In this document: positions 3,553 to 62,951 of the stretch, one piece after another | Position numbering within the stretch: the first letter of the stretch is position 1 | Layout: every line of letters begins with the position of its first letter | NCBI GenBank assembly: GCA_046483065.1 | Contig: JAWODW010000037.1 | Span: 1,779-65,778, forward strand | Direction of reading: 5' to 3' | From: Longimicrobiales bacterium | Lineage (GTDB): Bacteria; Gemmatimonadota; Gemmatimonadetes; Longimicrobiales; RSA9 | DNA: 64,000 nt | The notes under the pieces: generated by a model | Database searches by the model: none | Seen by the model: the letters and a program-made list of their open reading frames with translations, nothing else | Told to the model about the DNA's origin: nothing | Made by a program: the position numbers and the translations under genes

Positions 3553-4176
3553 TTACAGCGAAATATCCGCAGGGGCTGCGGCCGTCCGCAGCTTCGTCAG
3601 CAGCTGCTGCTGCCGGATCCCCTCTTCGATCAGGTCGTCATCCCCGGCACCGCCCGAGTTCGCGATCTGCACGAGCACGAGCTCCAGGTCGCCCAGCAGG
3701 CCGGCCATCTCGGGGTCCTCCGCCACGCGGGAGTCGAGGAGCAGCCGCGTGGTGGCCAGAAGGTCCCTGGCCCAGTCGGCTGTGGCGGCCCGGTCATCCG
3801 TGGACGCCGCGGACGACCGGAAGAGCGTGAGCAGCGCCTCGGCGTCACTCATGTGCTCCGCCGCGGCCAGGCGCACCGGCGTGGACGGGGCCGACCTCTC
3901 GGCCGCCGCCATCGGCGCGTGTGCGGGGGCCGGCTCCCGGGTCATGCGACCCAGCCCGAAGCCGACGGCCAGCGTAGCGGCCGCCGCCAGCCCCACCACC
4001 CACGGCGTCCCCCGCCGCAGCCGGTGCCTGGCCCGGCGCCCGGCCAGGTCGTCGGTCTCGCGCCCCTGGGGCAGCTCCTCCCGGATCACCGCCCACATCT
4101 CGTCCCGGGGCGGCTCCGGCGGCTCGTTGTAGTCCCGTGCGGCGTGTATCATCCGCTCCAGCTCCTCCGGCTTCAT
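3553..4176 (-). CDS. Putative single-pass membrane anti-sigma factor
   Basis: 4-nt ATGA overlap with the sigma gene. Short N-terminal cytoplasmic segment, one TM helix (WVVGLAAAATLAVGFGLG) and a periplasmic tail. The call is by position; no specific family motif was recognised. Confidence 0.6.
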   Translation of the reverse strand: MKPEELERMIHAARDYNEPPEPPRDEMWAVIREELPQGRETDDLAGRRARHRLRRGTPWVVGLAAAATLAVGFGLGRMTREPAPAHAPMAAAERSAPSTPVRLAAAEHMSDAEALLTLFRSSAASTDDRAATADWARDLLATTRLLLDSRVAEDPEMAGLLGDLELVLVQIANSGGAGDDDLIEEGIRQQQLLTKLRTAAAPADISL

Positions 4177-4754: not shown

Positions 4755-4960
4755 TTCACCCCTTGGGACACGGGGCGCCGTGATAGGGTTGCGTCCACGT
4801 TAACGTCTGCCCGGTGCCGTGCCCATGCCTCAGAATGCCATCAGCGAACTCGCGGCCCGGTCCTTGCCATACACGTGGCCAGACACGGTACCCATCAGGG
4901 AAGCCGCGCGGGCGGGCACCGGCCCGGCCGCCACTGAACAGCAGATCACGGAGGCAAGAC

Positions 4961-5362
4961 ATGACAGAAGCAACGGTCAACTACGCCCTCGCCCGTACGC
5001 TGGACCTCTCCTTCGAGGAGGCCGACGAGCGCGTCCGGGCGGCGCTGAAGGACGAAGGGTTCGGCGTGCTCACGGAGATCGACGTGAAGGCCACGCTGAA
5101 GGAGAAGCTGGACGAGGAGTTCCAGCAGTACAAAATCCTGGGCGCGTGCAACCCGCCGCTGGCTCATCAGGCGCTGCAGCACGAGATCGACATCGGGCTG
5201 CTCCTGCCGTGCAACGTGGTGGTCCGGGCGCTCGACGACGGCCGTACCGTGGTGGAAGCCATGGACCCGGTCCAGCAGCTCGCGGTGGCCGACAACCCCG
5301 ACCTGCCCGCCATGGCGCAGCAGGTCCGGGAGCGGATGGAGCGCGTGATCGCCGCGCTGTAG
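4961..5362 (+). CDS. DUF302 domain protein
   Basis: GFGVLTEIDVKATLKEKL...YKILGACNPPLAHQAL signature. GGAGG lies 6 nt upstream of ATG 4961. The upstream part of ORF 4814.. lacks coding bias. Confidence 0.85.
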   Translation: MTEATVNYALARTLDLSFEEADERVRAALKDEGFGVLTEIDVKATLKEKLDEEFQQYKILGACNPPLAHQALQHEIDIGLLLPCNVVVRALDDGRTVVEAMDPVQQLAVADNPDLPAMAQQVRERMERVIAAL

Positions 5363-5396
5363 GACCGCCGCGCTGTAGGACCGCCGCGCTGTAGGA
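5349..5396. repeat. 16-bp tandem triplication (CCGCCGCGCTGTAGGA) spanning the DUF302 stop codon
   Basis: Three consecutive copies at 5349..5364, 5365..5380 and 5381..5396. The first copy encodes the last codons plus TAG. Confidence 0.95.
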
Positions 5397-5445
5397 CGCG
5401 GGGGTCGTGGCGGCGTTCCCACCTTCGGGACGTGGCCACCCCCGG

Positions 5446-5666: not shown

Positions 5667-5719
5667 GCAGTTGAAGTTCCCGCGCATCGAGCCGTTCTCC
5701 GCGTCTCCCGAATAAAGAA

Positions 5720-5750
5720 AGGCGCCGTCGGTATTTTGCCGACGGCGCCT
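5720..5750. terminator. Bidirectional intrinsic-terminator-like hairpin
   Basis: 11-bp GC stem GGCGCCGTCGG/CCGACGGCGCC with a 7-nt loop. Flanked by AATAAAGAAA on the left and TCCTTTTCGT on the right, which gives a U-tract on either strand. Confidence 0.75.
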
Positions 5751-5762
5751 CCTTTTCGTCTG

Positions 5763-30299: not shown

Positions 30300-30315
30300 T
30301 GCAGAAACGTCGACC

Positions 30316-30526
30316 CCCAAGGCGGACCGCCCAAGGCGGACCGGGTTTTACTTACCCGCCCAAGGCGGACCGCCCGCCCAAGGCGGACCGGGTTTTACTA
30401 TTTACCGCCGGGCCCTGCATGGCCTCATTCGCTGCCGATCTGCCCCGAATTCGGGCCGTTGGGATAGCAAATCGGGACATCCAGATAGCTGAAATGGCCA
30501 AATTGTAAAAAGTAAAACCAGGTCCG
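30316..30526. mobile_element. MITE-like element: duplicated left end and inverted right end around an AT-richer core
   Basis: CCCAAGGCGGACCG occurs four times in two ~43-bp tandem units, each ending CGGACCGGGTTTTACT (30336..30351 and 30385..30400). The inverted partner AGTAAAACCAGGTCCG is at 30511..30526. The core has a 12-bp palindrome CCCGAATTCGGG (30444..30455). No transposase is present. Confidence 0.45.
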
Positions 30527-58270: not shown

Positions 58271-58720
58271 ATGGCCGAAGCAGAGAAGGAATTCGATCTG
58301 ATGCTCCGCCGGCTCGAGGGCTTCAAGTTCGACACGGAGTTCGACGGCGAGAAGATGGCGAACCTGATGTTCGACGAGCCGGACCCCATCGGCGACGACG
58401 AGGGTCCGAACGCCGCCCGGGTGCTGAGCGCCGCCGTGGGCAACTGCCTGAGCGCGAGCCTGCTCTTCTGCCTGCAGAAGGCGCGGGTCACGGTGGAAGA
58501 CATGACCACCGACGTCCACGGCGTCGTCACCCGGAACGAGGACAAGCGGCTCCGGGTCACGGCGATCAAGGTCCGCATCAACGCCACCATCCCGCCCGAG
58601 GACCAGGACCGGGTCCCCCGCTGCCTCAAGGTCTTCGAGGATTTCTGCGTGGTGAGCGGCAGCGTCCGGAAAGGCATCGACATCGATGTCGAGGTGGACG
58701 TGCTGAACCCATCAAGCTGA
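58271..58720 (+). CDS. OsmC-like family protein
   Basis: Start MAEAEKEFDLM at ATG 58271. AAVGNCLSASLLFCL and FEDFCVVSGSV Cys motifs. Confidence 0.75.
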   Translation: MAEAEKEFDLMLRRLEGFKFDTEFDGEKMANLMFDEPDPIGDDEGPNAARVLSAAVGNCLSASLLFCLQKARVTVEDMTTDVHGVVTRNEDKRLRVTAIKVRINATIPPEDQDRVPRCLKVFEDFCVVSGSVRKGIDIDVEVDVLNPSS

Positions 58721-58721
58721 C

Positions 58722-58790
58722 GCGGAGGCGCGGAAGGGCGCGGAGACGCAGAGGTCTGACCGGTGGCATTCGTGCCCCGGCGAGGCTTTC
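58722..58790. repeat. Single arm of a CGCGGAG heptad element
   Basis: GACGCGGAGGCGCGGAAGGGCGCGGAGACGCAGAGG lies between the OsmC-like stop (58720) and the stop of the ppa remnant (58792). Confidence 0.7.
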
Positions 58791-58791
58791 T

Positions 58792-58905
58792 TCACCCGGC
58801 GGTGTCCACCTCGTACTTGTTCCGCCCGCCCCGGGGGATCTCGATGTACGCGTTCAGGCGGTCGGGTGGGTTGGGGCCGGTGGGCAGGTCGTGAAGCGGA
58901 TGCAT
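58792..58905 (-). pseudogene. ppa: Inorganic pyrophosphatase, N-terminal 37-codon remnant
   Basis: MHPLHDLPTGPNPPDRLNAYIEIPRGGRNKYEVDTAG* matches the family-I PPase N-terminus (..H.IP.G...P...N..IEIP.GS.NKYE.D). It then stops ~140 codons early, next to the CGCGGAG repeat arm 58722..58790. Confidence 0.7.
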
Positions 58906-59125
58906 GGCAGGCGACGCGGGGTGAGGGGAACGGTCGTCGTGACTTCCGATCTCAACGTGCCACGGCCGGGGGCGGCGCGGCAAGCTCCGGGGTGGGGCCA
59001 ACCATTCGCGCGGGTCCGACCTTCCGAGCGAAGCGGCGGTCGCGGCTCGGGAAGGCTGCCGGGCACAGCTGGTCGCGGGTCACGAGAGACCGGCGGCGGC
59101 TCGTCGGGCGGGGCCATCGGCTAGC

Positions 59126-59307
59126 GCGGGGGAAAATCGCGATTTCGTCGCCTGTTCGGGGGCGACATCGCGATCTTCCACGTCAAAGGTGGAAAAATGC
59201 GCTGGGGCGCCACGGGCCCGGCGACCAGGTTGCGTTCTTCCACCGATCAGGGTGGAAAAACGGGATGCGGCGAGCGGGATGCCCGCGAGATTGCGTATTT
59301 TCCCCGC
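59126..59307. repeat. Composite palindromic non-coding element with two TTCCAC-N-GTGGAA sites
   Basis: Outer [20 protein letters not shown] (59126..59143) / ATTGCGTATTTTCCCCGC (59290..59307). Hairpin at 59137..59173. Sites TTCCAC-N7-GTGGAAAAA (59176..59197) and TTCCACC-N6-GGTGGAAAAA (59238..59260). Confidence 0.75.
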
Positions 59308-59360
59308 CTTCGGCACCACGACCTCCCGACCCGGAGGTCCTCACGCGGCTAGAACCACCT

Positions 59361-59531
59361 TCACGTCCCCTCCATGTGCGTCCGGTAGGCGCCTCCGTAC
59401 CGCTCGAGGAGGAGCCGCTCCTCGCGCGGTGTCCGGTAGTCTAGCACGCCGAGCAGCACGAGTCCGACGGCCAGGAGGAAGGCGCTGTCGGCGAGGACCG
59501 CCACGAAAGTACCCCGATACCACAAATCCAT
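59361..59531 (-). CDS. 56-aa membrane mini-protein resembling the C-terminus of ICMT/PEMT-type methyltransferases (possibly a gene remnant)
   Basis: Below the ORF-track cutoff. GGAGGTGAAGG precedes ATG 59531. High GC3. MDLWYRGTFVAVLADSAFLLAVGLVLLGVLDYRTPREERLLLERYGGAYRTHMEGT* (TM helix + EE..L...YG..Y..Y tail). Confidence 0.5.
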   Translation of the reverse strand: MDLWYRGTFVAVLADSAFLLAVGLVLLGVLDYRTPREERLLLERYGGAYRTHMEGT

Positions 59532-59540
59532 CCTTCACCT

Positions 59541-59665
59541 CCTTGCGAGCCCCCGCAGGGGGCGAGCCTGTTGCGGCCGACGGCCGCCTGTTGCGAACGA
59601 AGTGAGCCTGTTGCCGGCCGCAGGCCGGCCTGTTGCGAGGACCGGAGGGCCGAGCCTGTTGCGAG
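59541..59665. repeat. Array of five GAGCCTGTTGCGAG-type repeats (20-26 bp period) interleaved with short GC hairpins, between feoB and the 56-aa ORF
   Basis: CCTGTTGC starts at 59567, 59587, 59607, 59629 and 59655. The spacers are mini-hairpins (CCCCCGCAGGGGG, GGCCGACGGCC, CCGGCCGCAGGCCGG, TCGCCGTCAGGCGA). A terminal half-copy CCTTGCGAG merges into the SD of the small ORF. Confidence 0.9.
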
Positions 59666-59671
59666 TCGCCG

Positions 59672-61900
59672 TCAGGCGACGAGCCTCCACGCCTGCGCCA
59701 CCCCGAACGTCACCGCGAAACCCAGCGCCAGCGGCAGCAGCGCCGCCACCACCGTCCACTTCCCGCTCCCGGTCTCCTTGTAGATGGTGTACAGCGTGGT
59801 GGAGCACGGGTTGTGGAGCAGGCTGAAGAGCATGAGGCTCACGCCGGTAAGAAGGGTCCAGCCGCCGGTGCGGAGAACGTCGGCCATGGCCATGGTGCTG
59901 TCCAGCTCGAACATGACGCCCGCCCCCTCCCCCAGGCCGCCCAGGCTCGCGGTGGTCAGCACGGTGAGCATCAGCACGGTGGGGATCACGATCTCGTTGG
60001 CGGGGATGGCCACCACGTAGGCCAGCAGGATCACGCCGTTCATGCCGAGCAGGAGGCCGAAGGGGTCCAGGGCCGAGATCGCGTGCTCGGCCAGGCTCGC
60101 GTCGGCCACACTGATGTTGGCCAGCAGCCAGATGACGGCGCCGGCGGGCACGGCGAAGATCACGGCGCGCCAGAGCACGATGAGCGTCCGGTCGATGACC
60201 GACGTGTAGAGGGTCTGGAGGATCCGCGGCGGGCGGTACGGCGGCAGCTCGAGGCTGAACGTCGTCGCCTCGCCCCGGAGCACGGTGTTGGAGAGGAGCC
60301 ACGAGCTCAGGAACATGAACCCGACACCGAGCACGGCGATCCCGACCACTGCGGCGGCGGAGACCAGGCCCGCCAGGTGGGCGGGGGCCAGGGCGCCGAT
60401 GAAGATGGTGGCGATGAGGATCTGCGTGGGCCAGCGGCCGTTGCAGAGACTGAAGTTGTTCGTCAGGATCGCGATCAGCCGCTCGCGCGGGCTGTCGATC
60501 ACGCGGGTCGAGACCACGCCGGCGGCGTTGCAGCCGAAGCCCATGGCCATGGTCAGCGCCTGCTTCCCGTGGGCGCCCACCTTCTTGAACATCCCGTCCA
60601 TGTTGAACGCCACGCGGGGCAGGTAGCCGAAGTCCTCGAGGAGCGTGAAGAGCGGGAAGAAGATGGCCATGGGCGGCAGCATGACGGCCACCACCCACGC
60701 CGTGGCCAGGTAGACGCCATCGAAGAGGAACCCGCTCAGCCACCACGGCATGCTGAGCGCCTCACCGACGCCCGTGAGCCACGCGTGCCCGTTGTCCACC
60801 AGCAGCGTGCCGAGCATCTGCGAGGGCACGTTGGACCCGGCGATGGTGATCCAGAAGACCACGGCCAGCATCAACAGCATCAGGGGGAACCCGAGCCACC
60901 GGCTGGTGAGGAGGTCGTCGAGCTTCCGGTCGAAGTCGTACGCCGTCTGCTTCAGGCCCCGGCGCTGCGACCGGTCGGCAATCGCCTGGGCGGCCTGGAA
61001 GAGGCGCGCCATGAGGGCATCGTGGAAGTCCGGGCGGAGGTTCCACCGCAGCCGCGACGCCGTGTCCAGCACCTCCCGGATCGCCGCCTCGTCCCCGGCG
61101 GGCTCTCCGGCGTGATCCTCCCCATGGGCCAGGAGCCCGAGCTCACCGCTGCGCACCGCCTCCTCCACAGCGCCATCGGCGTTCAGCAGCCGGAGGGCCA
61201 CCCACCGAGCGTTGGCCACGCCGGGGTACGCCCGCTGGATGGCCGGGACCAACTCGGCAGCGGCCTGCTCCACCTCCAGTGCGTGGGACTCGAGGCGGTA
61301 CGGCGTGGTGGGCCGCGCGCCGGTGGCCACGGCCTCCACCGCGTCCAGCAGCGCCCCGATACCCTCGCCGGACCGGGCCACGGTGGGGACCACGGGAACG
61401 CCGAGCTCGGCCTCCAGCTTCTCCGGATCCACCGCCGCACCCCGGCGCTCTGCCTCGTCCATCAGGTTCAGGCAGACCACCACACGGTCCGTGATCTCCA
61501 TGACCTGGAGGACCAGGTTCAGGTTCCGCTCCAGGTGCGTGGCGTCGACTACCACTACCGTGACATCGGGGCGGCCGAACACGATAAAGTCGCGGGCCAC
61601 TTCCTCGTCGCTGCTCCCGGCCTGGAGCGAGTACGTCCCCGGCAGGTCCACCACCTTCACCCGCCGGCTGTTGTGGGCGAACACACCCTCGGCACGGACC
61701 ACCGTCTTCCCCGGCCAGTTGCCGGTGTGCTGACGGAGCCCCGTCAGCTCGTTGAAGACGGTGCTCTTCCCCACGTTCGGGTTCCCGGCCAGCGCCACCA
61801 GGTGGTCCCACTTGTCGGGACTCAGACCGAGCCGCACCAGGTTCTGGTGCCGATGCTGCGCCGTCGCGCCCTCCTTCCGGGGCCGCGTGATCGTCACCAT
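59672..61900 (-). CDS. feoB: Ferrous iron transporter B
   Basis: G-domain [28 protein letters not shown]. Long polytopic C-terminal permease domain. Confidence 0.95.
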
Positions 61901-61901
61901 G

Positions 61902-62951
61902 TCAGCCCGCCCGCGCCGTCGGCCGCGCTTCGATCTCCACCCACTCGGCCTGCTCCCGACGCAGCGCGATGAGCGCGCCCCGGATCCGGTACGCCACCGG
62001 GTCGCCGCCGCTGCTCACCAGCTCGGGCGCGATCTCGGTGCCCGGCACGACGCCCAGGTCCAGCAGGCGACGACGCTGCGGGCCCTGGCACGACGGCGAG
62101 AGCCCCGCCACCCGGACGGACTCCCCGCGCTCGGCGTCCGCCAGCGTCCGGCGCGGGCCGGCGCCATCCTCGCCCTCGGGGACCGGCTCCACCGTGACGT
62201 TCGCCGCGTCCACCGCGCGGAGCTCGTGCTCCTCGCCCCGCACCCGGATCCGGACGCGGCCCGCCGACCGGCCGGTCTCCTTCCGCTCCACCACCTCCAG
62301 GACGGCGCCCGGCGCCAGACCCAGGTCGACCAGCCGCTCGAACACCTCGTCGGGCTCGTCCTCCAGGTGCCGGATCACCACGCTCTGCCCCGGCGCCACA
62401 CGGCCCAGTGAGGTGCCCGCCGGAGCCGGGATCTCGCCGCCGGCTGTGGGGATCGGGTCGCCGTGGGGGTCGTAGCGCGGGTCGCCGAGACGGCCGGCCA
62501 GCTCCTCCGCCTCGGCCTCCGTGAGCCGGTGCTCCACGCGCTCCGCCTCGGCGTGCCACTCCACGGCGGGTACTCCCGTGCGGTCCGCCAGGTAGCGCTC
62601 CCACAGACGGTGCGTGCGCACGATCCGCAACGCGTACGCGCGGCCCGGCTCGGTCAGCTCGAAGCCCGTCGGAACCGCCTCCGCCAGAGCCCGCTCCGTC
62701 AGCTTCGTCAGGACTTCTGATGCCACGCCACGGGACACGCCGAGCCGGCCCGCAACCGTCTCCAACGTCACCGGACGACCGGCGCGCTCGCAGTCGAGCA
62801 GGTGCTTCAGCCCGTCCTCCAGGCGAACCCGCTCCGTCTCATGGCGCACACGCCGCACGCGTGCGAGCAGGCCGCGCCGGGGCCACACCACGAGGGCGAG
62901 AAGGGCGCCGAGCGCGGCGAAGATGGCGAACGTAACGATGGCGTCAGGCAT
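61902..62951 (-). CDS. Membrane-anchored DtxR/MntR-family regulator fused to two FeoA (SH3-like) domains
   Basis: N-terminal [21 protein letters not shown]. DtxR core [16 protein letters not shown]...[14 protein letters not shown]...HAEAERVEH...DPHGDPIP. Two FeoA-like modules ([12 protein letters not shown]...[15 protein letters not shown]; [10 protein letters not shown]...[12 protein letters not shown]). Confidence 0.8.

Follow-up and report, generated by a model that had tools for sequence, protein, structure and literature searches.

Why should the 3' end of a ferrous iron transporter gene carry a string of identical short repeats, each set apart from the next by a different GC-rich palindrome? 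Such an array lies directly downstream of feoB in the window, by which we mean the whole 64,000-nt stretch of Longimicrobiales DNA analysed here. The original prediction had described it as a BIME-like array of five repeats and mini-hairpins, possibly serving as protein- or RNA-binding sites within the feo transcript and supplying, through its last degenerate copy, the Shine-Dalgarno sequence of a small ORF. The repeat array itself, placed at 59541-59671, was borne out, with five exact copies spaced 20-26 nt apart. It is real, non-random and partly conserved, its motif is undescribed, and it comes from two uncultured genomes; any function given to it here is a proposal. The locus is made up as follows.

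61902-62951, minus strand: DtxR-type repressor with FeoA domains
59672-61900, minus strand: feoB, 742 aa, with the Pfam domains FeoB_N, Gate and FeoB_C
59672-59674, minus strand: feoB stop codon TGA, in the loop of the array's first hairpin
140 nt directly 3' of the feoB stop, minus strand: spacer between feoB and the 56-aa ORF; the array is non-coding
59361-59531, minus strand: 56-aa ORF
59352-59531, minus strand: ICMT/PEMT methyltransferase C-terminal remnant, the same as the 56-aa ORF, residues 146-196 of 201
58804-58905, minus strand: inorganic pyrophosphatase (PPase) remnant, first 34 codons only, found by tblastn with the PPases of relatives

The window FeoB is 100% identical to the NCBI entry 'MAG: ferrous iron transport protein B [Longimicrobiales bacterium]'. 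Downstream of the array, the 56-aa ORF matches NCBIfam NF040696 at profile positions 132-183 of 190 (E 2.8e-4) and, in a tblastn search, the intact gene of the relative L244 (76% identity, E 1e-12). It ends at a premature TGA with homology running on beyond, and an in-frame stop also lies just upstream; these features mark it as the dead C-terminal third of an ICMT methyltransferase gene. Intact ICMT/PEMT genes of 201-203 aa start 6-22 nt past feoB in L244, L247 and L249, with no array there. The PPase remnant is 79-88% identical to relatives' PPases over residues 1-34 of about 177 (tblastn), and some 430 nt are absent ahead of the convergent OsmC gene (58310-58720), which reflects either a true deletion or pseudogene, or a MAG assembly join. 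Since both remnants are dead, the locus 3' of feoB is a decaying, repeat-prone one, and the array occupies the former place of the 5' two-thirds of the ICMT gene inside this decaying stretch. No rep, partition or recombinase genes lie beside it; its neighbours are feoB, the ICMT and PPase remnants and the convergent OsmC gene.

The repeat reads GCCTGTTGC on the plus strand and GCAACAGGC on the minus strand, in feoB sense. It occurs exactly five times, always in the feoB 3' spacer and always as a direct repeat on one strand, with spacings of 20, 20, 22 and 26 nt in order of plus-strand coordinates. Neither strand of the 64-kb window holds a copy outside the spacer, the feo promoter side included; shuffles give an expectation of 0.42 +/- 0.57 copies in 64 kb, and 0 of 100 shuffles reach five. 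One-mismatch variants number five elsewhere in the window, and the total of ten matches stays below the 16.6 expected, so that the motif is not enriched there. The units of the array are listed below in feoB sense, together with their counterparts in L245, a contig from a sister lineage.

59665-59680, minus strand: hairpin W0, GUCGCC-UGAC-GGCGAC, with the stop codon in its loop; local fold -11.5 kcal/mol
59654-59662, minus strand: constant 9-mer 1, GC-AACAG-GC
59637-59653, minus strand: hairpin W1, class I, UC-GGCCC-UCC-GGUCC-UC, with one C.U mismatch; the L245 orthologue is GGCCC-UAU-GGGCC
59628-59636, minus strand: constant 9-mer 2
59615-59627, minus strand: hairpin W2, class II, CGGCC-UGC-GGCCG, 7 bp including the flanking GC pairs, -13.7 kcal/mol; identical in L245
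59606-59614, minus strand: constant 9-mer 3
59595-59605, minus strand: interval W3, UC-AC-UUC-GU-UC, with a 2-bp stem only; a degenerate unit without a stable fold
59586-59594, minus strand: constant 9-mer 4
59575-59585, minus strand: hairpin W4, class II, GGCC-GUC-GGCC, 6 bp including the flanking GC pairs, -10.4 kcal/mol
59566-59574, minus strand: constant 9-mer 5
59547-59565, minus strand: hairpin W5, class I, UC-GCCCCC-UGC-GGGGGC-UC, -13.2 kcal/mol; orthologous to the last L245 unit, GCCCC-UGC-GGCGCC
59538-59546, minus strand: degenerate sixth 9-mer GCAAGGAGG, with the Shine-Dalgarno-like AAGGAGGUGA 6 nt before the ATG of the 56-aa ORF

This anatomy was obtained by splitting the feoB-sense RNA at AACAG and folding the pieces singly. 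Every piece between linkers has GC at both ends; except in W1 and W3 of the window, the two ends pair with each other and close a single hairpin from the outside. The 9-mer is therefore best read as two clamps with a linker between them: its first GC is the 3' clamp that closes the preceding hairpin, its last GC is the 5' clamp that closes the following one, and AACAG, 5 nt long, alone is left single-stranded. Two classes of hairpin alternate: in class I (GC-UC-stem-UC-GC) a 2x2 UC/UC internal loop separates the clamp from the stem, and in class II (GC-stem-GC) the stem runs straight from the clamp. The loops are UGC, UCC, GUC, UGAC and UUC, and W0 is closed further out by GC(UC)...(UC)GC at 59683-59684 and 59661-59662.

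Perfect stems in W1 to W5 measure 3 (5 bp with the one C.U mismatch), 5, 2, 4 and 6 bp, with loops of 3 nt. Their sum of 20 compares with 11.7 +/- 1.5 in shuffled segments and 10.6 +/- 1.8 in random window segments, and was reached by 0 of 20,000 shuffles and 0 of 20,000 random window draws. The spacer as a whole is not unusually stable against shuffles (z = -1.0 on the sense strand, -0.9 on the other), and its minimum-free-energy fold replaces several local hairpins with long-range pairs; the structural signal is one of local hairpins, not of a global fold. Inside the array itself there is no G.U asymmetry that would separate RNA from DNA. The expectation of a different GC hairpin in each interval thus held for three perfect stems and for one with a C.U mismatch, but 59595-59605 (ACUUCGU) forms merely a 2-bp mini-stem. 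The extent of the array also had to be revised: it does fill the spacer, but it takes in as well the hairpin at 59665-59680 that bears the feoB stop codon.

Is the array found elsewhere? Our comparison set consisted of ten orthologous feoB loci, with the sequences of P0007 and P0005 ending 46 and 21 nt past feoB. One of the ten carries the array, which brings the known instances to two: the window and L245, an independent JGI metagenome contig whose FeoB is 88% identical to that of the window and its sister in a neighbour-joining tree. The original prediction counted on recurrence of the motif, either elsewhere in the genome or in orthologous spacers; it recurs in this one orthologous spacer, but is wholly absent from eight others (FeoB 77-88% identity) and from the rest of the 64 kb. 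A search with the C-terminal 150 aa of FeoB, meant to catch fragments on short contigs, added no member to the clade formed by the window and L245.

The L245 array lies directly 3' of feoB and is longer than that of the window, with a different number of units (about ten), spacings of 20-29 nt, partial degeneracy and segmental duplications of about 73 and 141 nt. A 58-nt block consisting of linker, hairpin, linker, hairpin and linker is identical at 55/58 positions between the two, and its three differences are confined to one hairpin (two in the loop, one in the stem), the three shared linkers being unchanged. The two feoB genes are 85.5% identical overall and 71.6% identical at third codon positions. 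Under the third-position rate 55/58 has P ~8e-6, for a block that was picked after the fact, and only 11% of 58-nt coding windows reach it. Roughly half the linkers in L245 are degenerate (GCAGCGGC, GCAACGGGG, GCAGGGGGC, GCAACCGGC), which makes the constraint patchy.

Changes in the stems between the window and L245 are compensatory. When the class-I units of both arrays are taken together (n = 8), 90% of cells are paired, a fraction that is inflated because the structure was read off the same eight sequences, against 33-51% in slid controls. Three pairs are altered on both sides, and the covariation score of 0.29 exceeds the 0.106 +/- 0.035 of shuffles, 0 of 500 of which reach it. The last unit is orthologous as well: its L245 version, GCACGGUG, has neither a Shine-Dalgarno sequence nor an ORF, and the degenerate sixth 9-mer GCAAGGAGG corresponds there to GCACGGUGU. 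It follows that the Shine-Dalgarno-like sequence is specific to the window. The best explanation of these observations is that the array is a vertically inherited, lineage-specific element of the feoB 3' untranslated region.

The array may have arisen from feoB itself. Unit F of L245 (GGCTCGTCGCCTGGCGGCGAACTCGCAAC) has 32 matches to the window feoB end plus W0 and 24 to L245's own feoB end. Its GGCTC-GTCGCCTGGCGGCGAAC-TCGCAAC is almost identical to the GGCTC-GTCGCCTGACGGCGAC-TCGCAAC of the window feoB end and first hairpin, and GGCTCGT[CG]GCCTGA is the feoB end in more distant relatives too. Unit F is therefore a copy of feoB's terminal stop-codon hairpin, which argues that the array probably grew by local tandem duplication. 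The stop-codon hairpin would have seeded it, and repeated local tandem duplication would have been followed by later gain and loss of units. An origin from the 5' region of ICMT was rejected, as no similarity was found. At 5228-5300 of L001 (FeoB 86% identity), the same position after feoB, lie about ten tandem copies of GTGGATC. Together with tandem duplications near ORF 3' ends in the window (5350-5397 and 30312-30400), the L001 array makes gene ends here seem repeat-prone. The GTGGATC unit resembles L001's own feoB end, GTGGAGGATC.

What kind of element is this? By its sequence, it appears to match no described repeat family. REP/BIME elements of enterobacteria are likewise extragenic and co-transcribed, lie at gene 3' ends and consist of stem-loops parted by short conserved linkers, and their roles as 3' exonuclease barriers, in termination and in differential expression within an operon resemble the effect proposed here. 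However, REPs are imperfect palindromes of about 35-40 nt that fall into few sequence families, have hundreds of dispersed copies and are RAYT-linked, and within a BIME the REP units alternate in orientation. The hairpins of the array are only 11-19 nt long and mutually different, with at least five unrelated stems (GUCGCC, GGCCC, CGGCC, GGCC, GCCCCC); these stems are near-perfect palindromes without a definable orientation, the 9-mers are all direct, only the linker is constant, and the single locus has no second copy in the 64-kb window or at the relatives' loci. With no other copy, no common REP-type units and no alternating orientation, the BIME-like label does not hold.

We tentatively favour, at a probability of roughly 40%, an RNA structure that acts in cis at the feoB transcript's 3' end. 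The feoB-sense RNA would form a string of short GC-rich stem-loops, clamped by G-C/C-G pairs and joined by single-stranded AACAG. These stem-loops would terminate or pause transcription without a U-tract and would block 3'-to-5' exonucleases, so that the feoB 3' end would be fixed, stabilised and insulated from downstream sequence, and the AACAG linkers would be exposed contact sites for an endonuclease or another factor. Our preference for this reading comes from the conservation above the synonymous level, the compensatory stems, the invariant exposed linker and the apparent descent from the terminal hairpin. From these we infer RNA rather than DNA as the active form, and termination, stabilisation or insulation as the putative function; any role of the linkers is likewise proposed. 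The original prediction of stem-loops acting in the feo transcript survives as the best available reading, but stripped of BIME/REP membership.

The functional model that we would adopt is that of intercistronic stem-loops conferring segmental mRNA stability. Those of the Rhodobacter puf operon and the REP of E. coli malEFG are also GC-rich hairpins placed right after a cistron with no U-tract, but they comprise one or two hairpins and lack both an invariant linker and a repeat architecture. No U-tract follows the stem-loops of the array as it would in an intrinsic terminator; AACAG or UCGC follows each hairpin, and 58600-60000 holds neither a U-tract terminator nor a sigma-70-like promoter. 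Canonical terminators are not enriched anywhere in the window relative to shuffles, which, with none at the locus, makes a 3'-end structure of another kind plausible. The stop codon of L001 feoB also sits in the loop of a hairpin, GCCGCC-UAGC-GGUGGC, whose G.U pair, as read from the sequence, works on the sense strand only, a point in favour of RNA. Against the RNA reading, there are just two instances, and eight orthologues manage without the array. The linker constraint is patchy in L245, the spacer is no more stable than shuffles, plain exonuclease barriers leave the invariant linker unexplained, and the flanking gene remnants mark a decaying, repeat-prone locus.

The main rival to a cis-acting RNA structure is a neutral minisatellite, which we regard as doubtful but to be taken seriously. 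Slippage would have duplicated the feoB 3' end with nothing selected, the palindromes being kept by template-switch (quasi-palindrome) correction and the linkers by slippage or gene conversion. Such a history suits a place where ICMT and PPase remnants flank the array, where L245 shows duplications of ~73 and 141 nt and many degenerate linkers, and where most orthologues have no array at all. Unrelated tandem arrays occur at the same spot elsewhere, such as the GTGGATC copies of L001, and other exact tandem duplications lie near window ORF 3' ends, at the two places given above. What the minisatellite accounts for poorly is the pattern of change: the cross-species identity of 55/58 is well above third-position identity, the stems have changed in compensatory fashion across old paralogues, and five identical 9-mers alternate with unrelated hairpins, the opposite of recent slippage.

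Mycobacterial MIRU minisatellites and boxB of the pneumococcal BOX elements resemble the array in that they are tandem repeats along the direction of transcription between operon genes, in a GC-rich genome, with copy numbers that differ among lineages. MIRUs, however, are 46-101-bp units at many loci, whose small ORFs extend over the stop and start codons on either side, and BOX elements are dispersed and modular. The array is confined to a single locus, has an out-of-frame period of 20-29 nt and consists of units that have diverged save for the linker, although its first unit does overlap the feoB stop. As its periods are not multiples of 3, a coding repeat was rejected too.

A multivalent binding platform would best explain the invariant linker, but we consider it unlikely. 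The AACAG (or GCAACAGGC) linkers would be bound by several copies of a trans-acting factor, whether an RNA-binding protein or a small RNA whose seed is GCCUGUUGC, and the array would be a regulatory target or sponge that ties the fate of the feoB mRNA to some signal. It is indeed the linker and not the hairpin that is invariant, with 0 changes in the three linkers shared with L245, and the linkers stay exposed while hairpin sequences vary; each array offers 5-10 copies. On the other hand, no partner turned up, since both strands of the window are free of GCCTGTTGC outside the array; half the linkers in L245 are degenerate, Rfam has no match, and the array is carried by two genomes only. The linkers contain no GGA (CsrA-type) motif and at most two consecutive A-R-N triplets each.

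The CsrB/RsmZ decoy RNAs and the five-IRE 3' UTR of the transferrin receptor also present a short motif many times over in a series of stem-loops, and the latter, although eukaryotic, does so in the 3' UTR of an iron-uptake mRNA. In these RNAs the motif (GGA, or CAGUGN) lies in the loops of hairpins that are alike, whereas in the array the loops vary and the motif is the linker. The sole GGA motifs of the array fall in the last unit, in its window-specific form AAGGAGGUGAAGGAUG, and no IRE consensus is present. A stronger version of the idea, which we hold to be quite unlikely, makes the array a 3'-UTR regulatory module of an undescribed type: the GC-clamped hairpins would be mere spacers, and the 5-10 AACAG/GCAACAGGC sites would be bound multivalently by an RNA-binding protein, ribonuclease or small RNA that sets the lifetime of the ferrous-iron importer mRNA. 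If true, bacteria would have their own equivalent of the multi-IRE transferrin-receptor 3' UTR, with recognition in linkers rather than in loops.

It is very unlikely, in our estimate, that the array works as DNA, as an iteron-like or BIME-like element of direct 9-bp protein sites between cruciform-prone palindromes, with a nucleoid protein, gyrase, a regulator or a recombinase as the binder. BIME linkers in E. coli bind IHF, the window repeats lie about two helical turns apart (20, 20, 22 and 26 nt), and no strand-specific G.U pairs occur inside the array. The spacing is nevertheless irregular (20-26 nt in the window, 20-29 nt in L245), which puts the sites out of helical phase and disfavours binding at the DNA level. 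There is no context of rep, partition or recombinase genes, and outside the spacer the window, its feo promoter side included, does not contain the 9-mer. Iterons are repeats of 17-22 bp at a regular spacing of ~22 bp with rep, DnaA boxes or AT-rich sequence; here the constant part is 9 bp and the period varies between 20 and 29 nt. The AACAG linker is also unlike what we take to be DtxR/IdeR or Fur boxes.

Could the array instead tune translation of the 56-aa ORF, with its last, modified repeat as the Shine-Dalgarno sequence? AAGGAGGUGA does stand 6 nt before the ATG, takes the place of the last linker and remains outside any hairpin. We judge such a role highly improbable, because the ORF is a truncated ICMT remnant with a premature stop in a decaying stretch. 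The orthologous last unit of L245 lacks both the Shine-Dalgarno sequence and the ORF, and relatives with intact ICMT genes 6-22 nt past feoB have no array.

Among the matches listed, searches of databases offered no wider family. Scanned at gathering thresholds, the whole window gave no Rfam matches; at E <= 10, 59300-59800 gave four matches only, at chance level (14-19 bits against thresholds of 50-90), to families that include a eukaryotic miRNA, an archaeal snoRNA and Pseudomon-groES. A three-copy pattern found at least 119 stretches in a genome collection, and the matches listed were collagen-like coding repeats (period 9/18/27), cyanobacterial GGCAACA heptamers and simple tandem repeats. 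A stricter pattern run against metagenomes returned, among the matches listed, coding repeats with periods of 12/21/24; the L245 contig fits this pattern yet was not among them. Matches listed from a viral scan were coding repeats only, and a phage-borne element was rejected on that ground. A literature search for REP-like elements in Gemmatimonadota or for similar arrays returned nothing relevant.

That the array is one copy of a dispersed REP/BIME-type or mobile, possibly phage-borne, repeat family is scarcely credible: hairpins and conserved linkers at a gene 3' end give it a superficial BIME likeness and two relatives' contigs stop shortly past feoB, but the 64 kb and ~50 kb of DNA from relatives contain no further copy, the sister lineages share an orthologous position, and among the 293 genome or metagenome clusters and 162 viral clusters listed with the core, different hairpins between constant cores occur in the window and L245 only. 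In CRISPR arrays the repeats measure 23 nt or more, the spacers 26 nt or more, and cas genes are usually present; here the repeat is 9-13 nt and the 'spacers' are palindromes of 11-19 nt. Integron attC sites, DGR hairpins, DUS/USS, Chi sites, nearly precise transposon-excision scars, IRE, pho boxes and DtxR/Fur boxes were likewise rejected on sequence.

Should the proposed RNA structure prove functional, it would show that the stop-codon hairpin of a gene can give rise to a tandem stem-loop module that selection then retains. Its conserved part would be a 5-nt linker with the clamp pairs and not the hairpins, the reverse of REP/BIME and CsrB-type logic, and it would point to an AACAG-reading factor in Gemmatimonadota acting on an iron-uptake mRNA. 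To our knowledge, there is almost no RNA biology for this phylum. If it is non-functional, the array would illustrate neatly how, in GC-rich genomes, gene ends prone to repeats yield structured-looking arrays, and would be a caution for scans that read hairpin-plus-motif periodicity as regulation.

Several other features of these sequences deserve mention. Just downstream of the L245 array is a perfect 14-nt inverted repeat, AACGCCCCACTCGA / TCGAGTGGGGCGTT (3941-3954 and 4031-4044, with 76 nt between the arms), that has no counterpart in the window. The G-rich feoB-PPase spacer of L246 (4024-4140) contains several CC(C)GTGG motifs ~20-25 nt apart, for which repeat finding gave weak two-copy families only. 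Window positions 58906-58990 (minus strand) resemble L245 4110-4194; this region 5' of the PPase start, which includes GGTGGCACGTTGAG and is conserved despite the truncated window PPase, may be a promoter or leader.

Between the ICMT and PPase remnants, the non-coding 59147-59262 (minus strand) holds two mutually similar hairpins, UUCCACC-CUGAUC-GGUGGAA and UUCCAC-CUUUGAC-GUGGAA. A third hairpin there, GUCGCC-CCCGAACA-GGCGAC, has a stem identical to that of the feoB stop-codon hairpin and AACAGGC on its 3' side. Elsewhere in the window, one convincing canonical terminator lies at 5718-5752, with a 14-bp stem and T-tracts on both strands that make it bidirectional. At 5350-5397 (plus strand) there are three exact copies of the 16-nt CGCCGCGCTGTAGGAC, the first of which includes the TAG stop of ORF 4814-5362; it looks as if a gene 3' end had recently been duplicated in tandem. 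The intergenic tandem duplication at 30312-30400 (plus strand) has a unit of ~50 nt and contains four CC(G)CC-CAA-GGCGG hairpins, the first with an imperfect stem, and two GGGTTTTACT tails, an arrangement that resembles terminator-like elements in duplicate.
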